A stretch of 31,919 nt of DNA. Source: a virus. Lineage: Duplodnaviria; Caudoviricetes. The notes beneath the pieces are model-generated. The model was given only the letters and a program-made list of their open reading frames with translations, was not told the DNA's origin and did not search any database. The stretch is taken from IMG/VR virus record IMGVR_UViG_3300033067_000395, positions 1 through 31,919 of that record, one strand, 5' to 3'. The translations under genes were made by a program, and so were the position numbers. Below, in pieces: positions 7,155 through 27,941 of this stretch. Every line of letters starts with the position of its first letter. Positions within the stretch are counted from its first letter, which is position 1.

Positions 7155-7595
7155 TTAAGCTTCTGGATCAGTTGTTACAACTAAGCCGTCTCCGTTTAAA
7201 GTTACTGAAAAAGTAGCCAAGTCATCTCCAGACCCCATATCCAAAGATAAGTCTGAGATTAAAGCACTTCCGTAATAAACTGCTCCAGTAACTCCAGTTA
7301 CTAATTTCCAAGTGATTAAAGCTTTTGCAAGTTGCAAATCGAATAAATAATCGTGAGAAGCTTTTGTGTCGTCTCCTCCAACAGAAGTCGTATCGATATA
7401 CTCTCCCTCTGCGTCTAAAGTGTAGCTGTAAATTCCAGCTTGTACTTTAGTTACTCCTGGATCGCATTTTGTGTTTGATTCAATAACAGAAACTGCTGTT
7501 GATAAACTGTTTGAAGTTAAACAAGCTACTGGTCTGTAAGCTGCTCCGTCGTGTACGTAAAGTATTCCAACTTCTCCTTTAATTGGTGTTGCCAT
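7155..7595 (-). CDS. Major tail (tube) protein
   Basis: Follows the tail terminator; 146-aa beta-rich sequence with IESNTKCD and C-terminal ATFSVTLNGDG typical of siphovirus tube proteins. Confidence 0.85.
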   Translation of the reverse strand: MATPIKGEVGILYVHDGAAYRPVACLTSNSLSTAVSVIESNTKCDPGVTKVQAGIYSYTLDAEGEYIDTTSVGGDDTKASHDYLFDLQLAKALITWKLVTGVTGAVYYGSALISDLSLDMGSGDDLATFSVTLNGDGLVVTTDPEA

Positions 7596-15269: not shown

Positions 15270-15572
15270 TTATCTTTTGTTTATTGTATTGTATTTTTTC
15301 AAACCGTCGTTTTTATCTATTAATTGATAAATTCCAAATTTAACCGGTCTGCCATGTTTGTTTGTTGTTTCTTTGAAGTTGCATTTTATCTCAATTTCGT
15401 GATCCAATCTCAAACGTGAAATAATTGCTGTAACATTTAAGCATCCTGTCGTTTCCATTAGTCCGTTTCTTGAAGCGGTTACGTTGTTTAATAGCTCGAA
15501 AAGTATTTCGGCACTTTGATTTGTTGGTTTGTCTAAATTTAACCTGTTTCTTGTTTTAAAAAAGTACATCAT
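15270..15572 (-). CDS. Winged helix-turn-helix DNA-binding protein
   Basis: Q...IL..L...G..N.TAIISRLR....I and G......Y.L pattern of HTH_39-like phage proteins. Confidence 0.55.
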   Translation of the reverse strand: MMYFFKTRNRLNLDKPTNQSAEILFELLNNVTASRNGLMETTGCLNVTAIISRLRLDHEIEIKCNFKETTNKHGRPVKFGIYQLIDKNDGLKKYNTINKR

Positions 15573-15595
15573 AATTTTTTTGATTTTAAGTTAGT

Positions 15596-15631
15596 AAAAA
15601 TGGAGGCATTTAAAGTAAATAACCTCCATTT
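15596..15631 (-). terminator. Terminator-like hairpin at the early/late boundary
   Basis: AAATGGAGG...CCTCCATTT stem running into a T-tract. Confidence 0.6.
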
Positions 15632-15660
15632 CCCCATTGTTAACCAAATCAAAATCAATA

Positions 15661-15668
15661 CAAATGTA
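15661..15668 (-). promoter_or_regulatory. -7 promoter element (TACATTTG)
   Basis: Consensus match in the intergenic region upstream of the hairpin. Confidence 0.5.
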
Positions 15669-15705
15669 CTATTTTTTTTGACTTGGATTTGATAAATGTT
15701 GATTT

Positions 15706-15840
15706 TTATATTATTTCTTTTAATCCATTAAGTTTAAATACAAATTGACCGCATTTAAATTTTATCAATCCGTATCCGTCTTGAATCTTAATTATCTCTC
15801 CAATGTTTTTATTAACTTTTACTTTGTCTCCGATTTTCAT
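15706..15840 (-). CDS. Small hypothetical protein (44 aa, KOW/SH3-like start)
   Basis: Hand translation MKIGDKVKVNKNIGEIIKIQDGYGLIKFKCGQFVFKLNGLKEII; AAAATCAAC leader. Confidence 0.6.
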   Translation of the reverse strand: MKIGDKVKVNKNIGEIIKIQDGYGLIKFKCGQFVFKLNGLKEII

Positions 15841-15893
15841 AATGTTGATTTTGACAGTTAAAATTGTGCGTTGCAGTCGTACCCATGTTATTT

Positions 15894-16112
15894 TTAGTTA
15901 AATGTTTTTACAATTGCTATTTTTCCAATCACTTCAAAAACTACATATTTAAAAATACTTTCTTGTTCTTTTTGAGTTGCTTTAAAAAACTCAGTTTTAA
16001 ATTCTTGGTTATCATTTAAAAAATTATTAAATGATTTTAATAATACTTTTTGGTTTGAAAATAATTCGTTTTGAGTTAATTCTAAATTTGTTAAAAAAGT
16101 TTGAGTTGACAT
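15894..16112 (-). CDS. Hypothetical early protein
   Basis: First ORF after the strong promoter at 16150-16180. Confidence 0.65.
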   Translation of the reverse strand: MSTQTFLTNLELTQNELFSNQKVLLKSFNNFLNDNQEFKTEFFKATQKEQESIFKYVVFEVIGKIAIVKTFN

Positions 16113-16132
16113 ATTGATTTGATTTTGATTTG

Positions 16133-16182
16133 TTAATTAATTTCTTGTACAAATTTAATTAATATTTTTTAATTACCAAATA
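16133..16182 (-). promoter_or_regulatory. Strong Bacteroidota sigma promoter, repeat copy 1
   Basis: TTTG (16180-16177) - 19 nt - TAAATTTG (16157-16150); 48/50 identical to 17849-17898. Confidence 0.8.
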
Positions 16183-16197
16183 AAAATGATTTTTTTT

Positions 16198-16416
16198 TTA
16201 TTTTTTTTCTAAATCAATTATATCTTTAATGTTTGCAGCTTCTTTTTTTCTGTTAATTAAGTCAACAACTTCTATAACTTTTTTTAAAATATCTGGGTGC
16301 AACTCTATGTTTCGCATACGAAGTCCTACATCAATAGCCATTTGTCTATCTTTTAAAAAATTAAATTTATATTTTGTTTCACATTCAAAACTTGGCATTC
16401 CAGTATTATTTGTCAT
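16198..16416 (-). CDS. Hypothetical protein
   Basis: ATGA-coupled to the upstream ORF. Confidence 0.6.
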   Translation of the reverse strand: MTNNTGMPSFECETKYKFNFLKDRQMAIDVGLRMRNIELHPDILKKVIEVVDLINRKKEAANIKDIIDLEKK

Positions 16417-16577
16417 AACTTTTCTATTTCTTGTTTAACTTCTTGCCAGTAAGCAGAACCAGTTACATTAATTAATTCATTAACCAATATCAAACAACAT
16501 TCTTTACAATTATAGCTTCCAAATGTATAGTCTATATAGGTTATATATAAATCTTTTGCTTTTTCTTTTAGTGTCAT
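16413..16577 (-). CDS. Small hypothetical protein (54 aa), paralog of 18299..18508
   Basis: Hand translation MTLKEKAKDLYITYIDYTFGSYNCKECCLILVNELINVTGSAYWQEVKQEIEKL; ATGA overlaps at both ends. Confidence 0.75.
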   Translation of the reverse strand: MTLKEKAKDLYITYIDYTFGSYNCKECCLILVNELINVTGSAYWQEVKQEIEKL

Positions 16578-16795
16578 AATCCTTTTTCTTTTTTAAATAT
16601 TACTAACTCATCATTATCATTATACTCAAAACAATTGTCACAATAATGCTCATCTCCTACTTTTTTCCAGCCAGCTTCGTCTCTTATTTCCTCAACATAA
16701 CTCTCATCGTTCCAACAGCCATAATCTGTATTTTCGTTTACATCACAACCGCAGCCATCACATACAATTGTGAACATTTTTACTTCTTTTACCAT
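16574..16795 (-). CDS. Small zinc-finger-like protein
   Basis: CDGC...GW....HYCDNC; ends in the shared IFKKEKGL module. Confidence 0.65.
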   Translation of the reverse strand: MVKEVKMFTIVCDGCGCDVNENTDYGCWNDESYVEEIRDEAGWKKVGDEHYCDNCFEYNDNDELVIFKKEKGL

Positions 16796-17058
16796 CCTTT
16801 TTCTTTTTTAAATATTTCTAATAATTCTAAATTTGTGTAAAGTTCGTTTCCATGTAAATAATTATAGTATCTTATTAAATTAGCCGTTTCACAATATGTA
16901 ACAAATTTTAAACACCAATCTCCAAACTCAATAATCTGTTGCTTTTCCATTTCTTTGGCTTCTTTAATAGAAGTATCAATAAATTTTAAAACATTTTTAT
17001 CAACGTGAAGACGTATTTGCACTAATTTTTTTTCTAATAATTCTACTGCTGTTTTCAT
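16789..17058 (-). CDS. Hypothetical modular protein
   Basis: Carries the KTAVE, AKEMEKQQII and ELLEIFKKEKG modules. Confidence 0.7.
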   Translation of the reverse strand: MKTAVELLEKKLVQIRLHVDKNVLKFIDTSIKEAKEMEKQQIIEFGDWCLKFVTYCETANLIRYYNYLHGNELYTNLELLEIFKKEKGW

Positions 17059-17061
17059 AAC

Positions 17062-17823
17062 TTATTTGTTTTTAAATTGTTCAAACCATTCCGTTATATC
17101 ATTTGGATTATCAACTGACATACTAAACAATATATCTAATACTTCTTCCTCACTATACATTCTTTCTTGTTGCCATCTAGCACCAGCGATAAAAGCTGGT
17201 CTTAAACGATTAATGTACTTTGAATAATATTTTTCAGCAGCTTCTTCAAGTGTTTCTTGTTTAGGTTTCCCACCAAAATAAGCAGAAGCTAAATCATTAA
17301 ATTCTTTTGTTCCTAATTGTGGTATTTCTTGTTTAGGTTTTTCACTTGGAATGATTATTTTGTAATTTAATCTTTCATTGTCGTAGCAAGTTTCTACAAT
17401 ATCTCCTAAAGGTGTTATGTATTCTTTCTTAACCTCAACCTCCTCACAACTTGGATTCTTCACGAACCATTCAAGGAACTCATCATCAATAGCTTGTACA
17501 CCATCTTTGATTAAGTCTTGGTCTGTTGTTAGGATGATTTCAGAATATTCGCTTTTACAAATATCCATAGTTGAACCACCACTCAATTGTCTTGAAACAA
17601 TTACATTACCCAATAATTCAGTTTTACACAAAACTCCATTGATTAAAGCGTATTCATTAGGTTTAATTTCTTCATCAGAAGTGATATGGATGTTTTGGGG
17701 TTTATAACCAGCTGACGATATAAACCAATCCATAGCCATAGTACTATTACGATCTTTATACGATGTACCATTATAATATAACCTACTCGATTTGTCTGTT
17801 GGTAATACGTGTATGTTTTTCAT
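17062..17823 (-). CDS. Hypothetical modular early protein (probable start MKNIHVLPT)
   Basis: The track's TTG start at 17868 lies inside the promoter; ATG 17823 follows an (AAAATC)n leader. Contains KPKQE twice, KQETLEEAAE, MYSEEEV and EQFKNK. Confidence 0.7.
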   Translation of the reverse strand: MKNIHVLPTDKSSRLYYNGTSYKDRNSTMAMDWFISSAGYKPQNIHITSDEEIKPNEYALINGVLCKTELLGNVIVSRQLSGGSTMDICKSEYSEIILTTDQDLIKDGVQAIDDEFLEWFVKNPSCEEVEVKKEYITPLGDIVETCYDNERLNYKIIIPSEKPKQEIPQLGTKEFNDLASAYFGGKPKQETLEEAAEKYYSKYINRLRPAFIAGARWQQERMYSEEEVLDILFSMSVDNPNDITEWFEQFKNK

Positions 17824-17848
17824 GATTTTGATTTTTGATTTTGATTGA

Positions 17849-17898
17849 TTAATTAATTTCTTTGACAAATTTAATTAATATTTTTTAATTACCAAATA
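17849..17898 (-). promoter_or_regulatory. Strong Bacteroidota sigma promoter, repeat copy 2
   Basis: TTTG (17896-17893) - 19 nt - TAAATTTG (17873-17866). Confidence 0.8.
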
Positions 17899-17922
17899 TA
17901 AATTAACTTTTTTTTATTTTTT

Positions 17923-18312
17923 TTATTCATCCTTGTAAAATTGTCCGTCAATCATTACTCCGGTACGCTTTGAAATTACATTGTATGCACTTTGCAAACA
18001 ATCCTCAAGCTTCAATCCTTGCATTTCTGCCTGGATAATAATAGTCACTAATATATCGCCCAAAGCGTCAATAATCTCCTCTTTGTTGTTTTCATAAATT
18101 GCTGCTGACAATTCGGTAACCTCTTCAAATGTTTTTTCACATTGTGCGTCTGGAGTTCCGTTTTTTAATATTCCTTTTTGTTCTGCCCAGCTTATTACTA
18201 AGGCTTCGAGTTCATTGTATTTCATTTTTCTTTGTGTTATTTCTAATTTAAATCTTGGATCGTAATCATAAGGTACAGTTCCGACTATCATTGTATTTTT
18301 ATCTAATTTCAT
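17923..18312 (-). CDS. MazG-like nucleotide pyrophosphohydrolase
   Basis: K..EE..EL and I.DALGD.LV motifs, AYN.I..R.G....G.F.K tail; true start may be the internal MKYNELE. Confidence 0.85.
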   Translation of the reverse strand: MKLDKNTMIVGTVPYDYDPRFKLEITQRKMKYNELEALVISWAEQKGILKNGTPDAQCEKTFEEVTELSAAIYENNKEEIIDALGDILVTIIIQAEMQGLKLEDCLQSAYNVISKRTGVMIDGQFYKDE

Positions 18313-18508
18313 AACTTTCTAATTCTTGTTTAACGTCTTCCCAAAATATTAATTCATTTGATTTTTCTAAATGTAAAGATGACCATTTATTTAATATTAA
18401 TAAAATCTCATCAACTGCTAATAAACAACATTGCTGGCAATTATATGCTCCAAATGTAAAATCTATATAAAATCTGTATAATTCTTTTGCTTTTTCTGTC
18501 GGTGTCAT
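18299..18508 (-). CDS. Hypothetical protein, paralog of 16413..16577
   Basis: MTPTEKAKELY...FTFGAYNC..CCL...W..VKQELE. Confidence 0.7.
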   Translation of the reverse strand: MTPTEKAKELYRFYIDFTFGAYNCQQCCLLAVDEILLILNKWSSLHLEKSNELIFWEDVKQELESYEIR

Positions 18509-18639
18509 CTTTTTAAATCGTATTTAATTGGTTTAACGTCTTTGTGTTTTTCTGCCAGTTCTTTTGCCTCTTCTCTAAGTCTTTTTTCCTGGTCAAAAAT
18601 TGTTTCATTTTTTGGTTTATTTTTTAGTTTACTTTTCAT
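18505..18639 (-). CDS. Small basic hypothetical protein (44 aa)
   Basis: Hand translation MKSKLKNKPKNETIFDQEKRLREEAKELAEKHKDVKPIKYDLKR; ATGA overlaps at both ends. Confidence 0.55.
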   Translation of the reverse strand: MKSKLKNKPKNETIFDQEKRLREEAKELAEKHKDVKPIKYDLKR

Positions 18640-19166
18640 AATTTTTCTTTAAGTTTTAATTTATAGGCATTTGAAGCCTCATCTATTGTTTTAAAAGTGC
18701 CTAATGAAATAATTTGTTTATTTATTATAATTTTAGATTGATATTTTTTTAAATCTTTTCTATAAAAAACACCAACTGGCAATCCACTTTTTTTAGTTCT
18801 TTCTTTTGACATATTTTCACGATGTGAAATAACTCTTAAGTTTTCTAAATTGTTATTTAAAGGATTACTATCAATATGATCAACAACATTTTCATAACCA
18901 TTAAATTTGTAATTTAAAAAAGCTGCTGCAACTAATTGATGAACTGTTTTAGTTCTTCTTTTTAAGCCTTTTATTTGTATCCCTAATTCTTTATATAAAG
19001 CTATTTTTAAATTATTAAAATTGACTTCGCCATATTTAATTTTAGAGGATCCCTTTCCATTACCATACCAATCGACTTTAATTTTTCTTACTTTTCCACA
19101 TTTTGTAACTTCAATGTTTGTTTCTAAGCCATTATACAAAACAGCTTTCCATTCTAATTTTTCCAT
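18636..19166 (-). CDS. Free-standing HNH homing endonuclease with C-terminal AP2-like domain
   Basis: VHQLVA.AF, VVDHIDSNPLNNNLENLR...EN and GV......Y...I......LG.F.T..EA..AY motifs. Confidence 0.9.
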   Translation of the reverse strand: MEKLEWKAVLYNGLETNIEVTKCGKVRKIKVDWYGNGKGSSKIKYGEVNFNNLKIALYKELGIQIKGLKRRTKTVHQLVAAAFLNYKFNGYENVVDHIDSNPLNNNLENLRVISHRENMSKERTKKSGLPVGVFYRKDLKKYQSKIIINKQIISLGTFKTIDEASNAYKLKLKEKL

Positions 19167-19262
19167 AAAATAAAAAGCAACGAATCAAAAGGTGGTAGTC
19201 TTTATCATCGTTGCAATTTTAAAAAATTTTTATTTTGGCTACCACTCCGATACGCAAATATA
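19167..19262 (-). ncRNA. Putative structured 5' leader (pseudoknot) with its own -7 promoter
   Basis: TATATTTG at 19262-19255; GUGGUAG is complementary to loop CUACCAC of the hairpin GCAACGA/UCGUUGC. Confidence 0.6.
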
Positions 19263-19283
19263 TAAAAAAAATAAATATAAATT

Positions 19284-19505
19284 TCAGCTTAATTTATTTG
19301 CCTTGCTTTGAACGATTATATATTGAAAACATACTTTGTCCTCAATTTGATTATCGTTCATTGTCCGTAATGTTTTAAGCCTCATTTCGAGCTTTGCTAT
19401 CTCAACGCAAAGGTTTCCTACATATTGAATTTTACATTCTTTTAAATATCGTTTGTAAAGTATCAATTGTTTTTCGATTCGGTTCATTTGGGTTTTGTTA
19501 TTCAT
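19284..19505 (-). CDS. Hypothetical protein
   Basis: Co-oriented ORF overlapping the upstream stop. Confidence 0.5.
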   Translation of the reverse strand: MNNKTQMNRIEKQLILYKRYLKECKIQYVGNLCVEIAKLEMRLKTLRTMNDNQIEDKVCFQYIIVQSKANKLS

Positions 19506-19830
19506 CCTCTAAATACATAAAAACTCGATTCTCTTCGATTTTGTTATTATTTATAAAATTGTAAATCTGTTGTTTTGAATATCCTGTTTCGTTTGCACAT
19601 TCGGCAACTGATTCGAATATTCTTTGGTCCTCAAGTCTTAAAACTTGTTTGTATTTCATTTCTCGCTTTGGGATGTAATAATTATTTTTTACTTTTTTAC
19701 CCTCTTTAATACATTTTAAAACTTCTATATCCATTTCGTTGTATTGTGAATGATGTTTGTTTAAAAGTCTGTGATTTTTAATTCCAGCCTCAGCAAATAT
19801 TTGGTTTATAATGGCATTACTCAGTTTCAT
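19498..19830 (-). CDS. Putative DNA-binding protein (NUMOD1/IENR1-like HTH)
   Basis: IFESVAECANETGYSKQQIYN motif. Confidence 0.55.
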   Translation of the reverse strand: MKLSNAIINQIFAEAGIKNHRLLNKHHSQYNEMDIEVLKCIKEGKKVKNNYYIPKREMKYKQVLRLEDQRIFESVAECANETGYSKQQIYNFINNNKIEENRVFMYLEDE

Positions 19831-19968
19831 AATTTAACTTTTATTTTGCTCTCTTAATTGTTTTTGAATTGATCTTATTTGATCATTTAATTTTTCGTCA
19901 TTTGAGCCTTTTAAATACAAGTTGTTTTGTTTTTTAAGTTCAGAATTACTTCCATATCTTACTTTTTT
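19817..19968 (-). pseudogene. Start-less open frame (frameshifted gene or frameshift extension)
   Basis: Frame ...ELKKQNNLYLKGSNDEKLNDQIRSIQKQLREQNKKLNYETE* fills the gap, but the nearby ATG (19955) is out of frame. Confidence 0.4.
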
Positions 19969-20228
19969 TTAAATTGTTTAATTGCTTCTACTGCAATAGA
20001 TTTCATTTTTACTACTGCTAAAAAATCATTACCTACATCACTAAATTGAGAAATTTTATTTAAAGCATCTACTAATTCTGAAACTTCCTCCTCACTATAA
20101 CCTTTCTGTTGCTTTTCTATTTCTTTGGCTTTTTCAACCATTAACTCAATTCCTCCAATTCCTATTGGAAAATACTCTCCAAGTTCTTGAATTAAAAAAT
20201 CTACTGCTGTTTGTTTTTTATTGCTCAT
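19959..20228 (-). CDS. Hypothetical modular protein
   Basis: MSNKKQTAV, AKEIEKQQ, YSEEEV and QFKKK modules. Confidence 0.7.
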   Translation of the reverse strand: MSNKKQTAVDFLIQELGEYFPIGIGGIELMVEKAKEIEKQQKGYSEEEVSELVDALNKISQFSDVGNDFLAVVKMKSIAVEAIKQFKKK

Positions 20229-20436
20229 AATTTATGTATTAAATGTTTCGTTGTAGTATTGTTCTGCATTATCATAATGTCTTTTATCTAAATTGGCAGC
20301 ATCAATAATCTGTTGCTTTTCTAATTCTTTGGCGTGGTTTATTTCTAAAGCAAACTCATTTAAAAATCTTGGTTCATCTTTAAATAATTCAATAAACCAT
20401 TCTACTGCTGTTTGTTTTTTATTGCTCATAATTTAT
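20200..20436. repeat. 36-bp exact direct repeat (20200-20235 and 20401-20436)
   Basis: TCTACTGCTGTTTGTTTTTTATTGCTCATAATTTAT occurs twice, covering the starts of two adjacent genes. Confidence 0.9.
20232..20429 (-). CDS. Hypothetical modular protein
   Basis: MSNKKQTAV and AKELEKQQII modules; ends AEQYYNETFNT. Confidence 0.7.
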   Translation of the reverse strand: MSNKKQTAVEWFIELFKDEPRFLNEFALEINHAKELEKQQIIDAANLDKRHYDNAEQYYNETFNT

Positions 20437-20676
20437 TTTTGATTCAAATATTTGGTAATAAGTTCTTTTTTGGTATTTTATCTGGCTAATAATAGCCTGA
20501 GCCTTTTCTGCTGAAAAAAGCCTAGCTTTTCCTTTTAATGCGTCTGGGAATATTTCAAGTCTGTGGATGCGTTCTTTTATCGATCCGTAACTTACTCCAC
20601 ACATTTCAGAAATTTCCATTGCAGTAAAGTAATTGTCCGTTGGTTTTGATTCTGTTTTGATTTCCTCTGTTTTCAT
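20419..20676 (-). CDS. HTH DNA-binding protein (MerR/excisionase-like; probable start MKTEEIK)
   Basis: YFTAMEISEMCGVSYGSIKERI helix-turn-helix; ATG 20676 preferred over the track's TTG. Confidence 0.55.
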   Translation of the reverse strand: MKTEEIKTESKPTDNYFTAMEISEMCGVSYGSIKERIHRLEIFPDALKGKARLFSAEKAQAIISQIKYQKRTYYQIFESKINYEQ

Positions 20677-20677
20677 T

Positions 20678-20761
20678 TTAAAAATGTTTATATGTAACGT
20701 TTTTGTTATTGCCAAATAAAAATTTGCTTACAATGTCGATAAATTTTTCAAGTGTTTTCAT
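20678..20761 (-). CDS. Very small hypothetical peptide (27 aa)
   Basis: MKTLEKFIDIVSKFLFGNNKNVTYKHF fills the gap between neighbouring genes. Confidence 0.4.
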   Translation of the reverse strand: MKTLEKFIDIVSKFLFGNNKNVTYKHF

Positions 20762-20763
20762 AA

Positions 20764-21468
20764 TTATTTTATTGTTTGTCTTTTTGCTTTTAATTCCCTA
20801 AGATAAGGTTTCTTTTGTTCGTCTTCGCTCCAGGCCTGTATTAAGTCCTCAAGCTCTAATCTATTTATCCCCTCTGTAATTTTGTCGATGTAAATTAAAA
20901 CTCGGTCCCGAAAAGAATTGTTAGGCTTTATTTTTTCGTATGATTTCTTAACGTCATCAATTGAGATTGTGCTTTCGGTTATTGTTTTTTTGTTTTTGAT
21001 ATATTCTCGCTCTCTGGCTTCGGCTTTCATTTCCATATACATCGGAAACCACTCTCCAAAAATTAAATTGCTGTCAACCCCTCTTTTTGTAGTCCCAAAT
21101 GTTCCGGACCTTGCCAATTTAAAAAATAAAACAATATCCTCAAGGCTATCGTAAGCAAATTTTTGTAAAGTATCAATTGTCAATATTTCTAATTGTGTTT
21201 CGCTTAACTTAGTACTAAATCCAAAAGAATCAATAAATCGGTTTACTAAAACTTTTACAACAGCATAACCAACTTTTCCATTTTCATTTTTAAAAATACC
21301 TCTTATAACTGGTTTATATAAAGTTTCGTTAATTGTTAAGTCCATTTCTAAAACTGAAAGGCTAACTGATCCAGATACTATACTTTTAGCTAAATCTAAA
21401 GTTTTTTGCTGTATCTGATAAGACTGCGTCTTCAAATATTTCTCTGGTTGTTCGTTCTTGTTTTCCAT
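20764..21468 (-). CDS. Replication-associated protein (possible helicase loader)
   Basis: Overlaps and follows the initiator, in the lambda P position; no ATPase motif seen. Positional call only. Confidence 0.4.
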   Translation of the reverse strand: MENKNEQPEKYLKTQSYQIQQKTLDLAKSIVSGSVSLSVLEMDLTINETLYKPVIRGIFKNENGKVGYAVVKVLVNRFIDSFGFSTKLSETQLEILTIDTLQKFAYDSLEDIVLFFKLARSGTFGTTKRGVDSNLIFGEWFPMYMEMKAEAREREYIKNKKTITESTISIDDVKKSYEKIKPNNSFRDRVLIYIDKITEGINRLELEDLIQAWSEDEQKKPYLRELKAKRQTIK

Positions 21469-22168
21469 TGTTAAAAGTATTTGATTGTTTTAAATTATCA
21501 ATCCAGCTCCATTTGAATCCGGACCAGCTTTTTTCAACACAAATTTCTAAAACTTCATTTATGTTGCAAGTTCTTTGTTCTAATTCAGCAATAAAATTTT
21601 TAAATGCCGTTTCTGTATTTGTTGCTTTTTTTGTTTTTCGTACTTTAAGCCAATCCTCAACTAATTGCCTTTCAAATCCATAATCTAATAAACTACCTAA
21701 AAAAGAGAATTTAGGCGAAGCCGGTAAACTTTCATTTTTTATTATTTCATTTTCTATTATTTCCTCTTTTATTATATTATATTCTCTTATGCCTTTTGAT
21801 TCGCTTTCAATTTGGTTTTGATTCGCTTTTATTTCGGTTTCTGTTTGCTTTTTAGGTCTTCCTCCTTTTGCACCGTTTAAGCTATTAACTGAGCTTTTGT
21901 TTGTTGCATTAAAGTATTGATTATCTAAGAACTTAATAACAATTTTGTCGTCTTGTAAATCAATAATTCCCTCGTTTAAAAGTTCGTCAAACTCTTCCTT
22001 GTAATTAAACCTTTTTAAAAATTGAATTTTAGATAAATCGCATTGCCTTTGCCAATAGTAAGAGCAAATGTTAATAAATAGTCCCTGAGCCGATAAAGTA
22101 CAAAATGAAATATCTTTTGTGAGATATTCAGCTGGCTCAAATTGAAAATAAGGTAATTCCTTTGCCAT
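21386..22168 (-). CDS. Replication initiator (YdaU/DUF1376-like N-terminus, lambda O analog)
   Basis: LPYFQF...EYL......LSAQGLFI..., NGAKGGRP and a C-terminal W...RK.KK domain; internal iteron-like repeats. Confidence 0.7.
   Translation of the reverse strand: MAKELPYFQFEPAEYLTKDISFCTLSAQGLFINICSYYWQRQCDLSKIQFLKRFNYKEEFDELLNEGIIDLQDDKIVIKFLDNQYFNATNKSSVNSLNGAKGGRPKKQTETEIKANQNQIESESKGIREYNIIKEEIIENEIIKNESLPASPKFSFLGSLLDYGFERQLVEDWLKVRKTKKATNTETAFKNFIAELEQRTCNINEVLEICVEKSWSGFKWSWIDNLKQSNTFNNGKQERTTREIFEDAVLSDTAKNFRFS
21733..21851. repeat. Putative replication origin: iteron-like repeats plus AT-rich tract
   Basis: TTTTGATTCGCTTT at 21794 and 21816, degenerate copy at 21838 (22-bp period); strand-skewed AT-rich tract at 21733-21790. 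Confidence 0.5.
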
Positions 22169-22295
22169 TGTAAAATTATTTTATTAAAACATAAACGGTT
22201 ATAAATCCAAACGCTTCTCACTTCGTTTTTCATTATAACCGTTGTTTAATATCTTTAGTTTGGTAATGTGAGAAGCCAACCACGAGCCAAATGTA
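22169..22295 (-). ncRNA. Putative structured 5' leader (pseudoknot) with its own -7 promoter
   Basis: TACATTTG at 22295-22288; GCUUCUCAC is complementary to loop GUGAGAAGC of the hairpin AACGGUUAUAA/UUAUAACCGUU. Confidence 0.65.
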
Positions 22296-22326
22296 AAAAT
22301 TTTATTTTAATTAAAAAAACTTTTAC

Positions 22327-22482
22327 TTAATTAAATTGTGAAAATCCTATTTTATAAGGAATGTAAATAAAACCTTTTTTACGCTTAGTTCTATGAAATA
22401 TAAGCCAACTATCCTGAGTCATTATTTTTTTTACTATTTCGCCTGTATTCGTGTTTATTGCAATGATTTCAATTTCATTCAT
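22327..22482 (-). CDS. Small hypothetical protein (51 aa)
   Basis: Hand translation MNEIEIIAINTNTGEIVKKIMTQDSWLIFHRTKRKKGFIYIPYKIGFSQFN; TAATG coupling to the upstream gene. Confidence 0.6.
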   Translation of the reverse strand: MNEIEIIAINTNTGEIVKKIMTQDSWLIFHRTKRKKGFIYIPYKIGFSQFN

Positions 22483-23027
22483 TATTTAAACTCTTTGCAT
22501 TTAATATCATATTGCAATTTTTTTGCAATTAGTTCCTCTCTTGTATATTTGTAATTTCTTTTTTGATCCGATTCAGACTCTAATTTTTTTACAAATTCAG
22601 TTCCAAATCTTTTAATTAATCCTTTGCGATATTCCAATAAATTTCCAGATAAATATTTGTTGCAGTGAGTATTGCATTGTTTATGGCAATTCCTTTCGTC
22701 AAACATTAATCCTGAGTACATTCCGGCCGAAAAATAATGACCTCCAGCCCAATCGTTTGTATTTGAGTTATTGCAACTAATACAAGGTAAATCTTTATCC
22801 CTTAGCCTAACATATCTTTGAAATGATTTCTTAGCTTCGGCTTCTAAGTCTGAAAGTGTTTTTAGCTTTTCTTTTAAAATACTTTTTTCCTTTTTAGCCT
22901 TATTTGCTTTCAATTTATTTGTGTAATCAATTGCGCATTTTGGCGAGCAAACTGGTACCAAAGGACGGTTTGGAGTAAATACTTCGTTACAAACTTTGCA
23001 TCTACGAGCTTTAATTTTATATTCCAT
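22482..23027 (-). CDS. ninG: NinG/Rap-family recombination endonuclease
   Basis: CKVC...F.P....VCSPKCA, F..YVRLRD..LPCISC, AGGHY, FDERN.H.QC...CN..LSGN and Y...L..R.G motifs. Confidence 0.88.
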   Translation of the reverse strand: MEYKIKARRCKVCNEVFTPNRPLVPVCSPKCAIDYTNKLKANKAKKEKSILKEKLKTLSDLEAEAKKSFQRYVRLRDKDLPCISCNNSNTNDWAGGHYFSAGMYSGLMFDERNCHKQCNTHCNKYLSGNLLEYRKGLIKRFGTEFVKKLESESDQKRNYKYTREELIAKKLQYDIKCKEFK

Positions 23028-23545
23028 TAAAATAAAGTTTGTAATTTTCTTTCAACTGTACATATTGTATCGTTATGACTTCCACCATGAGCAACTAATA
23101 ATATTTCAATAAGCTCCATATTTCTTTTAATACCAACTCCTGAGCTATTCCAACCAAAACAAATAACTATTCCGTTTGGTTTTAAAACTCTTGAAATTTC
23201 GTTTATATGTTTAGTCCTCCAACTGCTTTGAGTAGTTTCCATAGTAACCTCAATTCCTACATTTTTATAACATTCACTAACTTGCCTTAATGAATAAGGT
23301 GGATCGTAAAATACAAAATCAATTGAATTATCATCAAATTTTTTTAAAAAATCAACAGCATCCAAATTAAAGTTAGTATTATAATCTGGATTCAAATCAT
23401 TAGTAATTTTTGCTAATTTACTTTTATTTGCAAAAGGGTCAATACTTAACATTTCTTTATTATAATATTTATGTATTAATTTTTGAATACATTTAATATC
23501 AAATGTGTTATGATTAGGCATTTCCCAAACTCTATTAAATTTCAT
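23027..23545 (-). CDS. Compact adenine-specific (N6/N4) DNA methyltransferase
   Basis: IDPFA SAM-binding motif, DA.DFL, catalytic DPPY and RVLKPNG. Confidence 0.8.
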   Translation of the reverse strand: MKFNRVWEMPNHNTFDIKCIQKLIHKYYNKEMLSIDPFANKSKLAKITNDLNPDYNTNFNLDAVDFLKKFDDNSIDFVFYDPPYSLRQVSECYKNVGIEVTMETTQSSWRTKHINEISRVLKPNGIVICFGWNSSGVGIKRNMELIEILLVAHGGSHNDTICTVERKLQTLF

Positions 23546-23549
23546 ATTT

Positions 23550-23699
23550 TTATTTTTTTAATTTTAAAATTAAATCCTCATTTGGTAAATATCTAAAATA
23601 AAAAGACCATAATAAAAAATAAATTGAATAATCTATTTTTAAAGTACAAAATTCATATGTAGATAATAAAATACATATTATTGATAAAATTTTTTTCAT
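23550..23699 (-). CDS. Small hydrophobic hypothetical protein (49 aa)
   Basis: MKKILSIICILLSTYEFCTLKIDYSIYFLLWSFYFRYLPNEDLILKLKK; ATGA-coupled to the upstream gene. Confidence 0.5.
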   Translation of the reverse strand: MKKILSIICILLSTYEFCTLKIDYSIYFLLWSFYFRYLPNEDLILKLKK

Positions 23700-24127
23700 A
23701 AATTTAAAGTTAAATCCTCGTTTGGTAATGGTACCTCAACAGAAAACCATTCTTTTAAAAACTCTCTAATTTGAGAGTGATACTCTTCCTGTTCCGTTGT
23801 TGTGTTTTCTGTTGTGCTTTTTGGTACATTAATAACCTCTCCTGTTTTTTCGTTTACAATCTCAATCGTATTAAATTGCATCTTATAAAAGTCGTGTACT
23901 TTTTCGCTGCTCCAAACCTCGCCCCATTCTATTTTAATGGCTTGTTTTGTTATTGGTACAATAATACCCCAGTAATATGAATTTTGATTGTTAGAACGTT
24001 TCTTTTTTGGTTTCTCAAAAGTAATTAAAACATCACGTCCCTCAAAACTTTTAATCGTTTCTAAAATTTCGGATCTATTCCTTTTTAAATTTCCGTTTAT
24101 TACGTTTGATGTTATTTGTACTTTCAT
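23696..24127 (-). CDS. NinB/YbcN-like recombination protein
   Basis: KRSNNQNSYYWG, VH...K..F, STT and C-terminal LP motifs; ATG 24127 preferred over the track's TTG. Confidence 0.6.
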   Translation of the reverse strand: MKVQITSNVINGNLKRNRSEILETIKSFEGRDVLITFEKPKKKRSNNQNSYYWGIIVPITKQAIKIEWGEVWSSEKVHDFYKMQFNTIEIVNEKTGEVINVPKSTTENTTTEQEEYHSQIREFLKEWFSVEVPLPNEDLTLNL

Positions 24128-24131
24128 AAGC

Positions 24132-24167
24132 AAAAAAAAATGGAGCCGAGATATCCCTTATCGGCTC
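24132..24167 (-). terminator. Intrinsic terminator after the SSB-like gene
   Basis: GAGCCGA...TCGGCTC stem followed by a 9-T tract. Confidence 0.8.
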
Positions 24168-24175
24168 AAAATTAA

Positions 24176-24814
24176 TTAAAAAGGTAAATCGTCTTGAGGC
24201 TCTGAACTAACTACCTCAGCATCATAGACCGGAGTCTCGTTTGCGACAGTAGTTGCGTGAATATACTCAAAACTTGTAACCATTTTTTGGCGTAAAAACT
24301 CTGGTATCTTATTAAATTTTTCTTGGTCAAAATTTTCGTAAGTCCAAACATAACTCGGATTAATTTGTGCCGGACATTCTAAACCTTTTGGAAGTTTTGA
24401 AACGCTTCCGATTTCTGCGTATGTTTTGGTACCGTCTTTAGATTTTTTATGTGTAATATTTAACATGCAAGGCGCTCCTATAAGTTTCTCTATATCGAAA
24501 CTTTTAGCCTCTTCATCTGTAAAGTCTTGACCTCTCCAGTTTTTTAAGAAACTTCTCAAAGTTGCCTTTTCGTGTAATGATAAAGTAAACTCCTTAGAAA
24601 TTACATGAGGTTGCTCTCCGTTCTCTTCTTTAAATACTTTTAACTCAGTTGGAAGCTCAAAAGTGATTCTAACTTTGTTCATTGTTTTAATTTCTCCTTG
24701 AAAGTTTTCGTCAATAGTTCCGATGTGAATCATTGAGTAACATCTCGCTGGGTAACTTCCGGCTTCGATTGGTTGAATTGTTGAGCCTCCTGTGTTTGTT
24801 GCTAAAATTGCCAT
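24176..24814 (-). CDS. Single-stranded DNA-binding protein (phage type)
   Basis: G.YPARC, L.G.PC.LNI.H and acidic C-terminus DDLPF. Confidence 0.7.
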   Translation of the reverse strand: MAILATNTGGSTIQPIEAGSYPARCYSMIHIGTIDENFQGEIKTMNKVRITFELPTELKVFKEENGEQPHVISKEFTLSLHEKATLRSFLKNWRGQDFTDEEAKSFDIEKLIGAPCMLNITHKKSKDGTKTYAEIGSVSKLPKGLECPAQINPSYVWTYENFDQEKFNKIPEFLRQKMVTSFEYIHATTVANETPVYDAEVVSSEPQDDLPF

Positions 24815-24833
24815 TTGATTTTAATTTAATTGG

Positions 24834-25277
24834 TTAATATGTAATTGATAAACTTGATTTTCTGTTTGTTGTGCTTACTTTTGGTATTTCAATACCCTCT
24901 GAGTCGTAAATTGTATTATCTGATTTTAAAGCTACTTTTAGTAATTCTTCTCTGTCTTTTAATTGCTTTTGCAAATCCGAATAAATTGGATCCTCTGAAT
25001 AGTTTAAGCTTTCGCCTCCATTTCTGAAAGTACCCTTAATTCCAAAAGCTTCAAAATTCTCTTGTCCTAAGCTTTCTTTTAATTCAGCTTCAATAATTGA
25101 TAAAGCCTCTTTAAGTCTTAAAGCTTGAGCATAAACCTCAACTTTATTAACTTCTCCGGCATCCAATAAATCGGCTACAAATTTCTTACTGGTAATTTGG
25201 ATTTCTTTTTTTGATGGAAGGAAATTAGTAGTTTGTAATTCCTGCTCTCGCATCAATTCGAATAATTGTTTTGACAT
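24834..25277 (-). CDS. Hypothetical recombination-module protein
   Basis: Coiled-coil ORF directly upstream of SSB, with its own promoter. Confidence 0.55.
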   Translation of the reverse strand: MSKQLFELMREQELQTTNFLPSKKEIQITSKKFVADLLDAGEVNKVEVYAQALRLKEALSIIEAELKESLGQENFEAFGIKGTFRNGGESLNYSEDPIYSDLQKQLKDREELLKVALKSDNTIYDSEGIEIPKVSTTNRKSSLSITY

Positions 25278-25302
25278 GATTTTTGATTTTGATTTTGATA
25301 AA

Positions 25303-25330
25303 CAAATTTAAAAAATATTTTTTAATTAAA
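25303..25330 (-). promoter_or_regulatory. Promoter related to the repeated early promoter
   Basis: TAAATTTG at 25310-25303 with shared spacer TAATTAAAAAATAT; lacks the -33 TTTG. Confidence 0.55.
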
Positions 25331-25345
25331 AAAATAAAAAGGTAA

Positions 25346-26215
25346 TTATTTTTTAATAAAACTAAAAATATGTTCTATTATTGGTAATGTCCAACCATCA
25401 CCTAAAAGACTTGCAGCGTGATTTCTTGTAAGTATATCGCAATAATCATCAGGAAAACCTTGAAGTCTACAAAGCTCTATTTTATTTAAAATCCTCACAT
25501 TTTGATTAGGTTTAAATTCAGGATTGTCAAATACTAAATTAATCATTCCAAGTTCAGTATATCTTTTATATAATTTATCTTTGTTTACTAATTGTCTTTC
25601 TTCGCTTTCTAATATAGCTCTTGCTTTTTTTCTATCAGTATACCCTGAAGTTAAAACGTCTTGAAATAATTTTCCTTTGTCTTTAGGTTGTGGTATATCT
25701 GTAATTAAATCACCAAACATACCATCTTCTTTTGTTCTTATATTACTCCAATAATATCTATCTCTTGAAGCAGCAACAACTAATTCAGAATTAATACGAA
25801 CAGGATAAACACCTAATGCTATACTCATAATTCCAATATCTAATTTATTAGCACTTCCTACATTTTCTTGAAAAAATAAAACTTTTGAATTTAAAGATTT
25901 TATGTGTTCTAAAATTTCAATAAAAGTAAAAAACAAACTCGATTTTTTTCCATTTATTCCAGCACGTTTCCCAGCTGCTGACAAATCCTGGCAAGGTGAT
26001 CCGCTTAAAACCAAATCAATACTTTTCCAATCAATATCCCATTCTCTCCATTTTGTAACGTCTCCAACTTGTATTGTATCTGGAAAGTGATGTTGAGTTA
26101 ATTCAATAGCATAAGGCTTTATCTCACTAGAATAGTATTTATTAACTTTTATGCCTACATTTTCCAAAGCTTGACGTCCTGTATTCATTCCGTTAAATAG
26201 TGATAATACATTCAT
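25346..26215 (-). CDS. DNA (cytosine-5) methyltransferase
   Basis: Motif I SLFNG, GDV, catalytic GSPCQDLS, ENV, R.R.YW, E..RLQGFP and LGDGW. Confidence 0.9.
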   Translation of the reverse strand: MNVLSLFNGMNTGRQALENVGIKVNKYYSSEIKPYAIELTQHHFPDTIQVGDVTKWREWDIDWKSIDLVLSGSPCQDLSAAGKRAGINGKKSSLFFTFIEILEHIKSLNSKVLFFQENVGSANKLDIGIMSIALGVYPVRINSELVVAASRDRYYWSNIRTKEDGMFGDLITDIPQPKDKGKLFQDVLTSGYTDRKKARAILESEERQLVNKDKLYKRYTELGMINLVFDNPEFKPNQNVRILNKIELCRLQGFPDDYCDILTRNHAASLLGDGWTLPIIEHIFSFIKK

Positions 26216-26403
26216 TTTTTTACTGGTTTTAATTTTTGCAGTTTTACATTTAAGCCATTTCTAATAATACAAAGGTCTCTCGCTTTTATAGCTTCAATCT
26301 CAGTATCGAAAAACCCGCAAAAATATGTTACTCCAAAGTGAGTAACTTTTGATTGATATTTGCAAATTCCTCTTTTGTAATTTACTCCGGTGTACTTATT
26401 CAT
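26212..26403 (-). CDS. Stand-alone AP2-domain DNA-binding protein
   Basis: KYTGV......KYQSKV...G.....G.FDTE.EA.KARD motif. Confidence 0.75.
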   Translation of the reverse strand: MNKYTGVNYKRGICKYQSKVTHFGVTYFCGFFDTEIEAIKARDLCIIRNGLNVKLQKLKPVKK

Positions 26404-26593
26404 TTGCTAAAATTTCAGTTATTGCCTCCTTTTCCTGGATGATAAGAATCTCAAATATTTGTCGTTCGTGAATTGTTAACTCTCCCAAGGTTCTGCCGTT
26501 TAAAGTAACTCTTCCATTTACTAAAACTAATTTAATTTCGTGCGACAATCTCTCTCCTTGCACCATTGGCTCAGTTCCGATAATTTTTTCCAT
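26396..26593 (-). CDS. Hypothetical protein
   Basis: Co-oriented; (AAAATC)3 leader. Confidence 0.6.
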   Translation of the reverse strand: MEKIIGTEPMVQGERLSHEIKLVLVNGRVTLNGRTLGELTIHERQIFEILIIQEKEAITEILANE

Positions 26594-26594
26594 T

Positions 26595-26774
26595 TTATTT
26601 TGATTTTGATTTTGATTTTATTGGTTCGTCATTTAAATAAGGTTTTGTTATTTCAGCTATAAAAAGCTTTATTTGGCTTTGTATTGGCTTAGGCAGTAAA
26701 TCATTGTATTTAAATGTTTCAATACCTCTTTTGTACTTTGGCTTTCTTCCTGCTCCTCTTTCGTTTTGTATCAT
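26595..26774 (-). CDS. Small putative DNA-binding protein (59 aa)
   Basis: Hand translation MIQNERGAGRKPKYKRGIETFKYNDLLPKPIQSQIKLFIAEITKPYLNDEPIKSKSKSK; GAGRKP basic motif. Confidence 0.6.
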   Translation of the reverse strand: MIQNERGAGRKPKYKRGIETFKYNDLLPKPIQSQIKLFIAEITKPYLNDEPIKSKSKSK

Positions 26775-26779
26775 TGTTT

Positions 26780-26938
26780 TTATTTTAAAGATTTCATGTA
26801 TTTTATTGCTGGCTCCGGATTTCCGTAAGCTTTAAGAAATTTTGTTGAAATTGTAATCCCAAAAAATAGAATTTTTTTGTGGACGTAAAACATTTTCTCT
26901 TTGTAAGTAAGCTCGTAAACTTTTTTAAATGGTTTCAT
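26780..26938 (-). CDS. Small hypothetical protein (52 aa)
   Basis: MKPFKKVYELTYKEKMFYVHKKILFFGITISTKFLKAYGNPEPAIKYMKSLK; ATGA-coupled. Confidence 0.55.
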   Translation of the reverse strand: MKPFKKVYELTYKEKMFYVHKKILFFGITISTKFLKAYGNPEPAIKYMKSLK

Positions 26939-27144
26939 AATCCTTTTTCTTTTTTAAATATTTCTAATAGTTCTTTAGTATTATATTCGGTATATATTAT
27001 ATCTTCATTATATTGAATTACTAACCATTCTGCAAATTTAATGGCAAAATTATCGCATATTTCTATACAATCATTTGTGTCAAATTTTAAAAAATGAGGT
27101 TTAGAATTTTTTAATACTTTTTCAAACTTTTCTTTTAGTTTCAT
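26935..27144 (-). CDS. Hypothetical modular protein
   Basis: Ends in the ELLEIFKKEKGL module. Confidence 0.7.
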   Translation of the reverse strand: MKLKEKFEKVLKNSKPHFLKFDTNDCIEICDNFAIKFAEWLVIQYNEDIIYTEYNTKELLEIFKKEKGL

Positions 27145-27822: not shown

Positions 27823-27843
27823 TGTGTTTGATTTTGGTTATTA

Positions 27844-27891
27844 AATTAATTTCTTGGACAAATTTAATTTAAATTTTTTAATTACCAAATA
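27844..27891 (-). promoter_or_regulatory. Strong Bacteroidota sigma promoter, repeat copy 3
   Basis: TTTG (27889-27886) - 19 nt - TAAATTTG (27866-27859); similar to copies 1 and 2. Confidence 0.8.
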
Positions 27892-27911
27892 AAAAGATAA
27901 AAAAATTTAAT

Positions 27912-27941
27912 AAAAAAAAGCCACTCAGTTAGAATGGCTTT
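27912..27941 (-). terminator. Intrinsic terminator ending the late operon
   Basis: AAAGCCATTC...GAGTGGCTTTTTTTT hairpin and U-tract. Confidence 0.8.

Follow-up and report, generated by a model that had tools for sequence, protein, structure and literature searches.

Lambdoid boundary or linker sequences and T4 promoter-cassette shuffling depend on short conserved sequence at gene ends, which permits whole genes to be swapped, and diversity-generating retroelements and shufflons yield many protein variants from one scaffold. In the T-even adhesin gp38, glycine-rich motifs lie between hypervariable segments. This essential tail-tip receptor-binding gene has segments that act together, and a new assortment occurred in 0 of 14 selected chimeras (PMC3157838). 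Rad52-like recombinases (Red-beta, RecT and Erf), together with Orf and Rap, are linked to homology-driven mosaicism, and 23–27 bp is given as the minimal pairing length of Red-beta (PMC3945230).

We analyzed a 31,919-nt stretch of a Caudoviricetes record from a river phage, hereafter the window. A first-pass annotation had proposed that six small ORFs combine five short shared modules, A to E, in different ways. A six-frame scan located the modules where claimed, offset by 0–7 nt (Table 1), and the six architectures (20232, 19959, 16789, 17062, 26935 and 16574) were as first described. The sole extra match was A-like, on the plus strand at 7492. The shared DNA blocks were also recovered by a repeat finder, E as family D3, B as D6 and A as D8. 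The middles of these ORFs, and the parts of 17062 and 26935 first left unassigned (y and z), hold more conserved stretches, or frames, than that description allowed. The window has eight small genes of this design, namely the six first listed plus 16413 and 18299. Modules A–E are conserved frames belonging to four small-protein families, none of them named, in Bacteroidota-type phages. Each family is laid out frame–variable–frame–variable–frame, with variable segments of 10–30 residues and conserved in-frame joints of 24–60 nt.

Table 1. Module genes, conserved frames and associated features of the window (genes are named by their lower coordinate).
Feature	Position	Strand	Description
Gene 16413	16413..16577	-	Family IV, K-variable-central frame-variable-W; matches phrog_21441
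Gene 16574	16574..16795	-	Cysteine-rich (zinc-finger-like); grafted E tip overlaps start codon of 16413
Gene 16789	16789..17058	-	Hybrid, 89 aa: family I head + family III tail (variable-E)
Gene 17062	17062..17823	-	253 aa: predicted beta-rich N-domain (frames and variable segments alternate), then family II unit G-variable-H-C-variable-D
Gene 18299	18299..18508	-	Second family IV gene; matches phrog_21441; 73% identity to 16413 over 120 nt
Gene 19959	19959..20228	-	Hybrid, 89 aa: family I head (A-variable-B) + family II tail (C-variable-D)
Gene 20232	20232..20429	-	Family I, A-variable-B-variable-F, 65 aa; predicted helical homodimer
Gene 26935	26935..27144	-	Plain family III, 69 aa: own head + central frames, terminates in E
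Module A	17041-17052, 20199-20210, 20400-20411	-
Module B	16936-16959, 20106-20129, 20310-20333	-
Module C	17140-17157, 20082-20099	-
Module D	17062-17079, 19959-19976	-
Module E	ends at 16574, 16789, 26935	-
Frame F	20241..20267	-	Final helix of family I; lies within the remainder (x) of 20232 in the first-pass annotation
Frame G	17230..17262	-	Overlooked by the first-pass annotation
Frame H	17161..17193	-	Immediately ahead of module C; overlooked by the first-pass annotation
Promoter-like site	17866..17896	-	Bacteroidota -33/-7 type; repeated intergenic cassette (family D1)
Promoter-like site	27859..27889	-	Second cassette copy, upstream of run containing 26935
NinG/Rap	22482..23027	-	Junction endonuclease; candidate exchange helper
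NinB/Orf	23696..24133	-	Recombination mediator; candidate exchange helper

Translation of 17062 likely begins with the ATG at 17823. Profiles of both parent families match 16789, of which only nt 126–265 resemble another locus (L256, 88%). The reading of 16574 as a zinc finger followed by E held, although E is there a short piece grafted onto the end of the gene; the homologue of 16574 in locus L189 matches over nt 1–204 at 75% and ends differently. The module genes sit among replication and methylase genes, away from the tail-fibre locus.

We assigned module profiles with competition between modules (H and K otherwise drift into B) across the window and 398 viral loci baited with module DNA. 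Two or more different modules occurred in 559 of 17,077 distinct ORFs, compared with 0 of 17,077 shuffled ORFs. Module genes were present in 91 of 100 loci of at least 15 kb, on one strand only in all 91, and 65 of the 100 carried 2–8 of them. One family alone comprises 8,723 clusters at 50% identity, and the relatives of 17062 number at least 7,999 when clustered at 90%. The 305 locus genes comprised 268 head alleles and 258 tail alleles. Joints differ from one another in sequence, and copies of the same joint are only 73–88% identical. Profile–profile comparison of the four short families gave a best probability of 29% and did not demonstrate homology among them.

Families I–III had no informative match at the cut-off in Pfam, PHROG or NCBIfam; phrog_21441, which covers 16413 and 18299, is a model without an attached function. 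A PDB sequence search returned nothing below E 0.03, and the only tblastn matches of 19959 in cultured phages were chance ones to tape-measure proteins. The cultured Flavobacterium phage elemoF shows these architectures too, with segments of its own; the matches were weak (E 0.5–2) and were accepted only on inspection of the ORFs. Elemovirus on Flavobacterium sp. BAL314 is a cultured phage–host pair with two member genes. A degenerate module C pattern hit 70 loci in GTDB, with a true member in one (L420). A profile search of the genus of G001 (uncultured Flavobacterium sp.) matched 4 of 401 genomes, so members were rarely found in cellular genomes. The freely accessible literature that was searched contained no description of the family.

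Comparison of variable segments indicates that they very probably reassort between phages at the short conserved in-frame joints. When two genes had one variable segment in common (at least 85%), the second segment was below 65% in 69 of 71 pairs. The same test gave 108 of 575 for control small ORFs, a rough control because many of its "one-half" pairs are spurious ORFs. Genes identical across their whole DNA were merged beforehand (37 of 305 had a twin), which drops fully linked pairs from modules and controls alike, and pairs inside one allele cluster are not independent. In 65 of 72 cases, both ends of the identity tract lay no more than 76 nt from the segment, inside the flanking frames, and 73 of 76 tracts in common covered the entire segment. 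Five four-way allele cycles were found among 258 stored A-B proteins, two of them involving window alleles; head–tail cycles were seen only in this denser set, with none among the 305 locus genes. Thirteen tails accompany the head allele of 20232, and 14 heads accompany its tail allele (12 and 3, respectively, for 19959); protein P0005 joins the 19959 head to the 20232 tail. In the long family represented by 17062, linkage is likewise absent among six variable segments. Of 797 DNA-level module pairs, 794 preserved the reading frame and 4 had stops.

The idea that recombination shuffles segments at in-frame short homologies is supported by the near absence of head–tail linkage, by breakpoints within frames and by the silent-site uniformity of most modules described below. 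Mixing is not free, however, since module order is fixed, head before tail. Exchange mostly swaps alleles within one family, and cross-family hybrids are a minority (15 ABF+GHCD and 5 ABF+E against 346 plain ABF). For ordinary divergent paralogs one would expect fixed order and no enrichment of breakpoints; we found the fixed order, but the breakpoints are enriched. This enrichment is no proof that the joints are kept for recombination, because the variable segments are unrelated and homologous crossovers inside them are hardly possible. Reassortment without preferred pairs fits weak selection on the combination.

Substitution patterns indicate that the variable segments themselves are under purifying selection. 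Their dN/dS values were 0.33 and 0.23 (35 and 41 pairs), or 0.12–0.36 in stricter sets with trimmed ends (15–17 pairs), and the loops gave no sign of positive selection. In the tail loops of family I, Asp, Gly, Tyr, Trp and Asn are overrepresented. Within modules, second codon positions vary least. Silent sites of most modules are also more uniform than codon usage predicts, with codon uniformity of 0.66–0.92 in unbaited modules against 0.47–0.64 expected; 37 of 38 control families fell at 0.40–0.65. A, D, G and H far exceed the control families, while the busiest joint, module B, is weak in this respect (0.68 versus 0.59). A special role of end modules in translational coupling was not supported overall: the next start lay within -25 to +15 nt for F in 120/235, D in 87/138, E in 8/14 and W in 63/73 cases, compared with 1,426/2,560 for control genes, and only W stands out.

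We modeled 20232 as a monomer (pLDDT 90), with a predicted helix–loop–long helix–loop–helix fold, and as a homodimer. The homodimer scored 0.73, whereas the best of three controls scored 0.09; at least 95% of contacts agreed among runs and partner pLDDT was at least 84. Of 30 solved pairs, 20 attained the dimer mark, as did 1 of 23 single chains, a calibration that applies only roughly to this one protein of one family, modeled with a custom alignment. The predicted interface takes in 31 of 36 frame residues and 6 of 26 variable residues. According to this model, joints A, B and F quite probably double as a helical dimer core. The modules had also been described as linkers. They do appear to serve as exchange joints, but they are not mere linkers, given their least variable second codon positions and the predicted core. 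A fold search with the 65-aa model gave a best Z of 4.7, with none at 5 or above, so that a new fold is neither indicated nor excluded. In BFVD and the ESM Atlas, the structures most similar to 20232 and 17062 belong to uncharacterised phage proteins of uncultured Caudovirales. For the N-domain of 17062, compared with the LexA/CI C-terminal (S24) fold, the best match was the lambda repressor C-domain (Z 6.5, rmsd 3.5, 77 aligned, 8% identity), and 9 of the 10 top matches are LexA/CI/UmuD-type; Z values below 8 are common.

Taken together, it seems fairly likely that the four families swap segments at their joints and that a helical dimer core displays the variable segments as binding surfaces. 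The segments would reassort by ordinary short-homology recombination, with crossovers in co-infected Flavobacterium-like cells. Candidate enzymes are phage single-strand annealing proteins, possibly helped by Orf and Rap. ERF annealing proteins, chosen by eye, occur in loci L142, L152 and L469/cultured elemoF phage, and no annealing protein was recognised in the incomplete genome that the window represents. The module genes may be expressed early. One promoter-like cassette is directly upstream of the run 17062-16789-16574-16413, and it resembles the Bacteroidota -33/-7 consensus (PMC6847099); a sigma-70 promoter scan stayed at chance level (70 versus 65). The A+B-sharing paralogues 20232, 19959 and 16789 may form mixed dimers, and the loops on the dimer core may bind proteins. 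That the loops are binders, putatively of host or rival-phage proteins, is a tentative reading. It is doubtful, though conceivable, that freshwater Flavobacterium-type phages share a community-wide, antibody-like repertoire of loop cassettes on dimeric scaffolds, forming mixed dimers directed against host defence proteins.

Shuffling could instead be a by-product, and we consider this rather unlikely. Here the frames would be the structural core of a generic protein (a spacer, adaptor or packaged filler) with interchangeable, weakly constrained loops, and recombination would mix the loops because the frames are the sole homology. Almost free reassortment, the number of head and tail alleles, purifying rather than positive selection and the stable second codon positions all suit it. 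It accounts poorly for alleles that stay nearly constant from one unrelated gene context to another, their dN/dS remaining far under 1 even after end trimming, or for the silent-site uniformity of A, D, G and H and the multiple module genes in 65 of 100 long loci.

It is improbable that the frames dock on one conserved host machine (e.g., RNA polymerase, ribosome or protease) and bring it varied payloads, a variant of which the first-pass annotation had raised. The frame residues are strongly conserved, and D and E tips are grafted on unrelated bodies (the cysteine-rich 16574 and several short hydrophobic ORFs), as docking would have it. However, the predicted self-dimer uses up most frame residues, so that modules likely dock on each other, with another copy of the protein as predicted partner. 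The four short families also have little common sequence, and the tips frequently touch or run into the start codon that follows, making the grafts explicable at the DNA level.

We regard as very improbable a dedicated site-specific or capture system that cuts the joints and loads outside segments. Very high allele diversity and sharp tract ends would fit, but the window proteins scanned include no recombinase, integrase, reverse transcriptase or invertase, in line with the earlier suggestion that neither of the latter two is needed, and the joints differ in sequence both from one another and among copies. Only 36 of 1,014 segment matches fell outside annotated module ORFs, and the 30 listed were mostly module genes cut by short loci; about 400 loci showed no sign of capture from outside DNA, a comparison of low power.

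Comparison of river-run contigs with window region 15500-22200 showed that those of X2 and X3 span 19959 and 20232 with 0 differences and that one of X5 spans 20232, so the junctions of these genes are unlikely to be assembly chimeras. A mosaic created by metagenome assembly through shared short repeats is scarcely credible: relatives outside one phage genus are uncultured short-read assemblies, and depth and loose ends pile up on modules in the river samples, but most tracts are under ~200 nt and end on both sides, requiring two switches in quick succession, runs of a second study contain the window genes whole with 0 differences, and elemoF, with the same architectures, is cultured.

The four families explain a large block of phage "dark matter", and clustering likely splits the 8,723-cluster family because of its mosaicism. 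This mosaicism operates at a 30–100 nt scale inside genes, with linkage almost wholly lost. If the repertoire exists, it would consist of thousands of loop cassettes on a few helical scaffolds, from which each phage draws a hand of binders. It would be a diversity generator without a dedicated enzyme, kept by the phage population as a whole and not by any single genome. If the loops bind, they would direct attention to the defence proteins of aquatic Bacteroidota hosts; the scaffold would then be a natural loop-tolerant miniprotein. The cultured Elemovirus–BAL314 pair makes function directly testable.

The window differs from a diversity-generating retroelement in having, within this incomplete genome, no reverse transcriptase among the proteins scanned and no 100-nt near-identical coding repeat. 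It differs from a shufflon in having no recombinase among those proteins, with its module genes all on one strand. In contrast to both, diversity here consists of whole segments swapped between genomes. Lambdoid and T4 joints resemble the D and E tips and the promoter cassette that is repeated here, but they are intergenic, whereas most joints described here are internal to the ORF and code for the predicted core. Short imperfect homology at the borders of exchanged pieces is shared with Rad52-like mosaicism (here at 65 of 72 tracts). NinB/Orf and NinG/Rap are encoded in the window, and candidate ERF proteins in three related loci. The mosaics described for Rad52-like recombinases are larger and concern E. 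coli temperate phages, while the pieces here are intragenic, 30–100 nt long, and the enzyme is a presumed one. The principle is already known from T-even gp38. As there, conserved motifs alternate with hypervariable segments in fixed order, form the core (a predicted one here) and serve as crossover sites without long homology (here from comparative data). Unlike gp38, a single gene, these are several tiny genes per genome in a non-structural region; their frames are predicted helices and not glycine-rich, their segments reassort nearly freely, and they form cross-family hybrids.

The first-pass annotation had proposed five short shared modules (A–E) combined into six gene architectures, and all five and all six were recovered, displaced by 0–7 nt from where it had placed them. 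Four module DNA baits retrieved 398 viral loci, and profile seeds were taken from the window by coordinate. A profile scan of these baited loci found at least two different modules in 559 of 17,077 distinct ORFs and in none of 17,077 shuffled ORFs. Four protein families, with members of 55–100 residues, have these modules as their frames. All four share one layout: a start frame and a central frame, each followed by a variable segment, and then an end frame. These are family I (A-B-F, 366 family-profile hits), family II (G-H-C-D, 162 hits), family III (ending in E, 72 hits) and family IV (K-W, 96 hits). When unconstrained, the H profile drifted in register onto B, hinting that these central helices are related or convergent; profile–profile comparison gave no confirmation of B–H homology. 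The E tip of the cysteine-rich gene 16574 is, judged by alignment, a graft, since a homologue in locus L189 matches over nt 1–204 and then has a different ending. The D tip also ends hydrophobic ORFs of 27–39 aa (L122, L166, L216 and other loci), three of which directly precede a family I gene; these may be membrane peptides that share the joint.

Features of the window; single numbers are genes named by their lower coordinate
Feature	Position	Strand
Tail, head, portal and terminase genes	1–15.3 kb	minus
Small genes with replication, Nin and methylase genes	15.5–27.7 kb	minus
Endolysin and fibre-like gene	right end of window	
98-nt intergenic cassette, four copies	16118–16215, 17834–17931, 25271–25368, 27827–27924	
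Family I gene, plain	20232	minus
Hybrid genes	19959, 16789	minus
Family II unit behind long N-domain	17062	minus
N-domain of 17062	17460–17823	minus
Family III gene	26935	minus
Family IV genes	16413, 18299	minus
Cysteine-rich gene carrying E tip only	16574	minus
DNA methyltransferase genes, one C5 cytosine type, one likely amino type	23027–23545, 25346–26215	
HNH endonuclease with AP2-like end; lone AP2-like fragment	18636–19166; 26212–26403	
MazG-like pyrophosphatase	17923–18312	

The 305 fully parsed genes contain 268 head alleles and 258 tail alleles. In these loci, which were baited with module DNA, 27 of 29 head alleles seen at least twice have different tails, and 31 of 32 such tail alleles have different heads. 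With whole-gene twins collapsed (37 of 305), and bearing in mind that pairs inside one cluster are not independent, 69 of 71 pairs with one segment alike at ≥85% have no relation in the other segment, versus 108 of 575 for ordinary small ORFs. Shared tracts cover the whole segment in 73 of 76 cases, and in 65 of 72 the identity ends no more than 76 nt from the segment on both sides, which is within the flanking frames. In a set of 258 stored proteins, 13 different tails accompany the head of 20232, and 14 different heads accompany its tail. Five four-way allele cycles close in this set, two of them via window alleles; descent without exchange cannot produce such cycles. One stored protein, P0005, matches residue for residue the head of 19959 and the tail of 20232, joined at B. 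Linkage is likewise absent among the six variable segments in the long family (the relatives of 17062). Assembly errors are an unlikely source of the junctions in 19959 and 20232, because contigs from two river runs span both genes without a mismatch and those of a third run span 20232. The unlinked heads and tails, the tract ends and the cycles bear out the earlier proposal that recombination shuffles segments at in-frame shared blocks. The order of the modules is fixed, however, and cross-family hybrids are a minority (profiles I and II both hit 15 ORFs, and I and III both hit 5).

Of 797 module pairs compared at the DNA level, 794 are in frame, and 4 have a stop. The dN/dS values of the variable segments are 0.33 and 0.23, and close pairs gave 0.12–0.36 whether or not the ends were trimmed, with every interval below 1. 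The segments are working protein, not junk. Modules vary least at second codon positions, which indicates that they are constrained as protein too. Silent sites were more uniform than predicted in unbaited modules (same-codon use 0.66–0.92, versus 0.47–0.64 predicted from codon usage; 0.40–0.65 in 37 of 38 control families), but module B was weak (0.68 versus 0.59). This uniformity fits continual homogenisation by exchange. Another ORF family from the baited loci (124 aa, 20 members) lacks modules A–W; its codon uniformity is similarly high, at 0.69 versus 0.50 expected, and it is probably a fifth shuffled family.

AlphaFold2 modelled 20232 (pLDDT 90) with helices at 8–15 (module A), 20–25, 27–47 (through module B) and 55–62 (module F). 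The two-copy prediction scored 0.73, whereas the highest score among three controls was 0.09; scores at this mark were seen for 20 of 30 solved pairs and 1 of 23 single chains. Dimer runs share at least 95% of their contacts, and the partner chain has a pLDDT of at least 84. In the model, module A of one chain packs against module B of the other, and the interface involves 31 of 36 frame residues versus 6 of 26 variable residues. The prediction supports, at the level of a model, binding between the two copies. Sequence and fold searches of solved structures gave no good match to 20232. The N-domain of the long protein 17062 (model pLDDT 82) is predicted to be a beta domain, and structure searches match it best to the C-terminal domains of LexA, lambda CI and UmuD. 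The best match, to LexA/CI (Z 6.5, rmsd 3.5, 77 residues), had a weak echo in another structure search, and we treat the LexA/CI likeness as a lead only. Relatives P0142, P0170, P0206 and P0207 carry this N-domain as a tandem duplication, and in P0259 it is joined to an HNH nuclease.

The window is an AT-rich, incomplete siphophage contig of 31.9 kb whose genes lie on the minus strand, and river metagenomes hold DNA near-identical to it. Its methyltransferases are a usual anti-restriction feature. Three of the four cassette copies match the Bacteroidota −33/−7 promoter consensus (PMC6847099), which has 7 matches across the window versus 2.1 expected; given the matches in the cassettes, the host is likely a Bacteroidota. 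One promoter-like copy lies directly upstream of 17062, and from these promoter-like sites we infer early expression of the module genes. The cassettes may also serve as between-gene recombination joints.

A family I profile search returned 8,723 clusters at 50% identity. For the long protein 17062, clustering at 90% leaves at least 7,999 relatives; identity is just 36–59% among the best 120 listed. No library model was found for families I–III. In the cultured Flavobacterium phage elemoF, families I and II are each represented by one gene annotated as hypothetical, and 4 of the 401 genomes in one Flavobacterium-labelled genus sample gave matches. Contigs binned in a Chitinophagaceae MAG (L420/L470 and L471 (G002)) also have family I and II genes, and one has segments in common with viral locus L029; these members may be binned phage or reflect a wider host range. 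Between 2 and 8 member genes occur in 65 of 100 long loci.

On the likeliest reading, the joints would hold two roles. As protein they would form a small dimer core tolerant of any loop, and as DNA they would be the sole homology between otherwise unrelated alleles, so that a crossover there would exchange loops without breaking the frame, and the product could still fold. At 24–60 nt, the joints are compatible with the 23–27 bp that Red-beta needs at minimum for pairing; Orf and Rap help short-homology exchange of this kind (PMC3945230). Genes for NinB/Orf and NinG/Rap lie in the window. ERF is encoded by three related loci, whereas the window, an incomplete contig, yielded no recognisable annealing protein. 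As for the loops, the main rival is a generic role in which they are interchangeable, and both the near-free reassortment and the absence of positive selection agree with it. We tentatively favour loops that bind host or rival-phage proteins, at somewhat under an even chance, because of the allele diversity, the multi-copy carriage, the purifying selection and tail loops rich in Tyr, Trp, Gly and Asp.

The window failed retroelement and shufflon tests, no RT or invertase having been found among the window proteins scanned; the first-pass annotation had proposed shuffling that needs neither. We found no description of its module families in the open literature. In T-even gp38, as described in PMC3157838, conserved motifs form the core, part the hypervariable segments and host crossovers, as the frames appear to do in the window families. 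These are not members of the gp38 family, since their frames are predicted to be helical, their genes lie outside the fibre locus and they reassort almost freely, whereas none of the 14 selected gp38 chimeras reported there had a new assortment. We consider module shuffling in the window genes to be real; its working principle, by analogy, would be one already known from T-even gp38.
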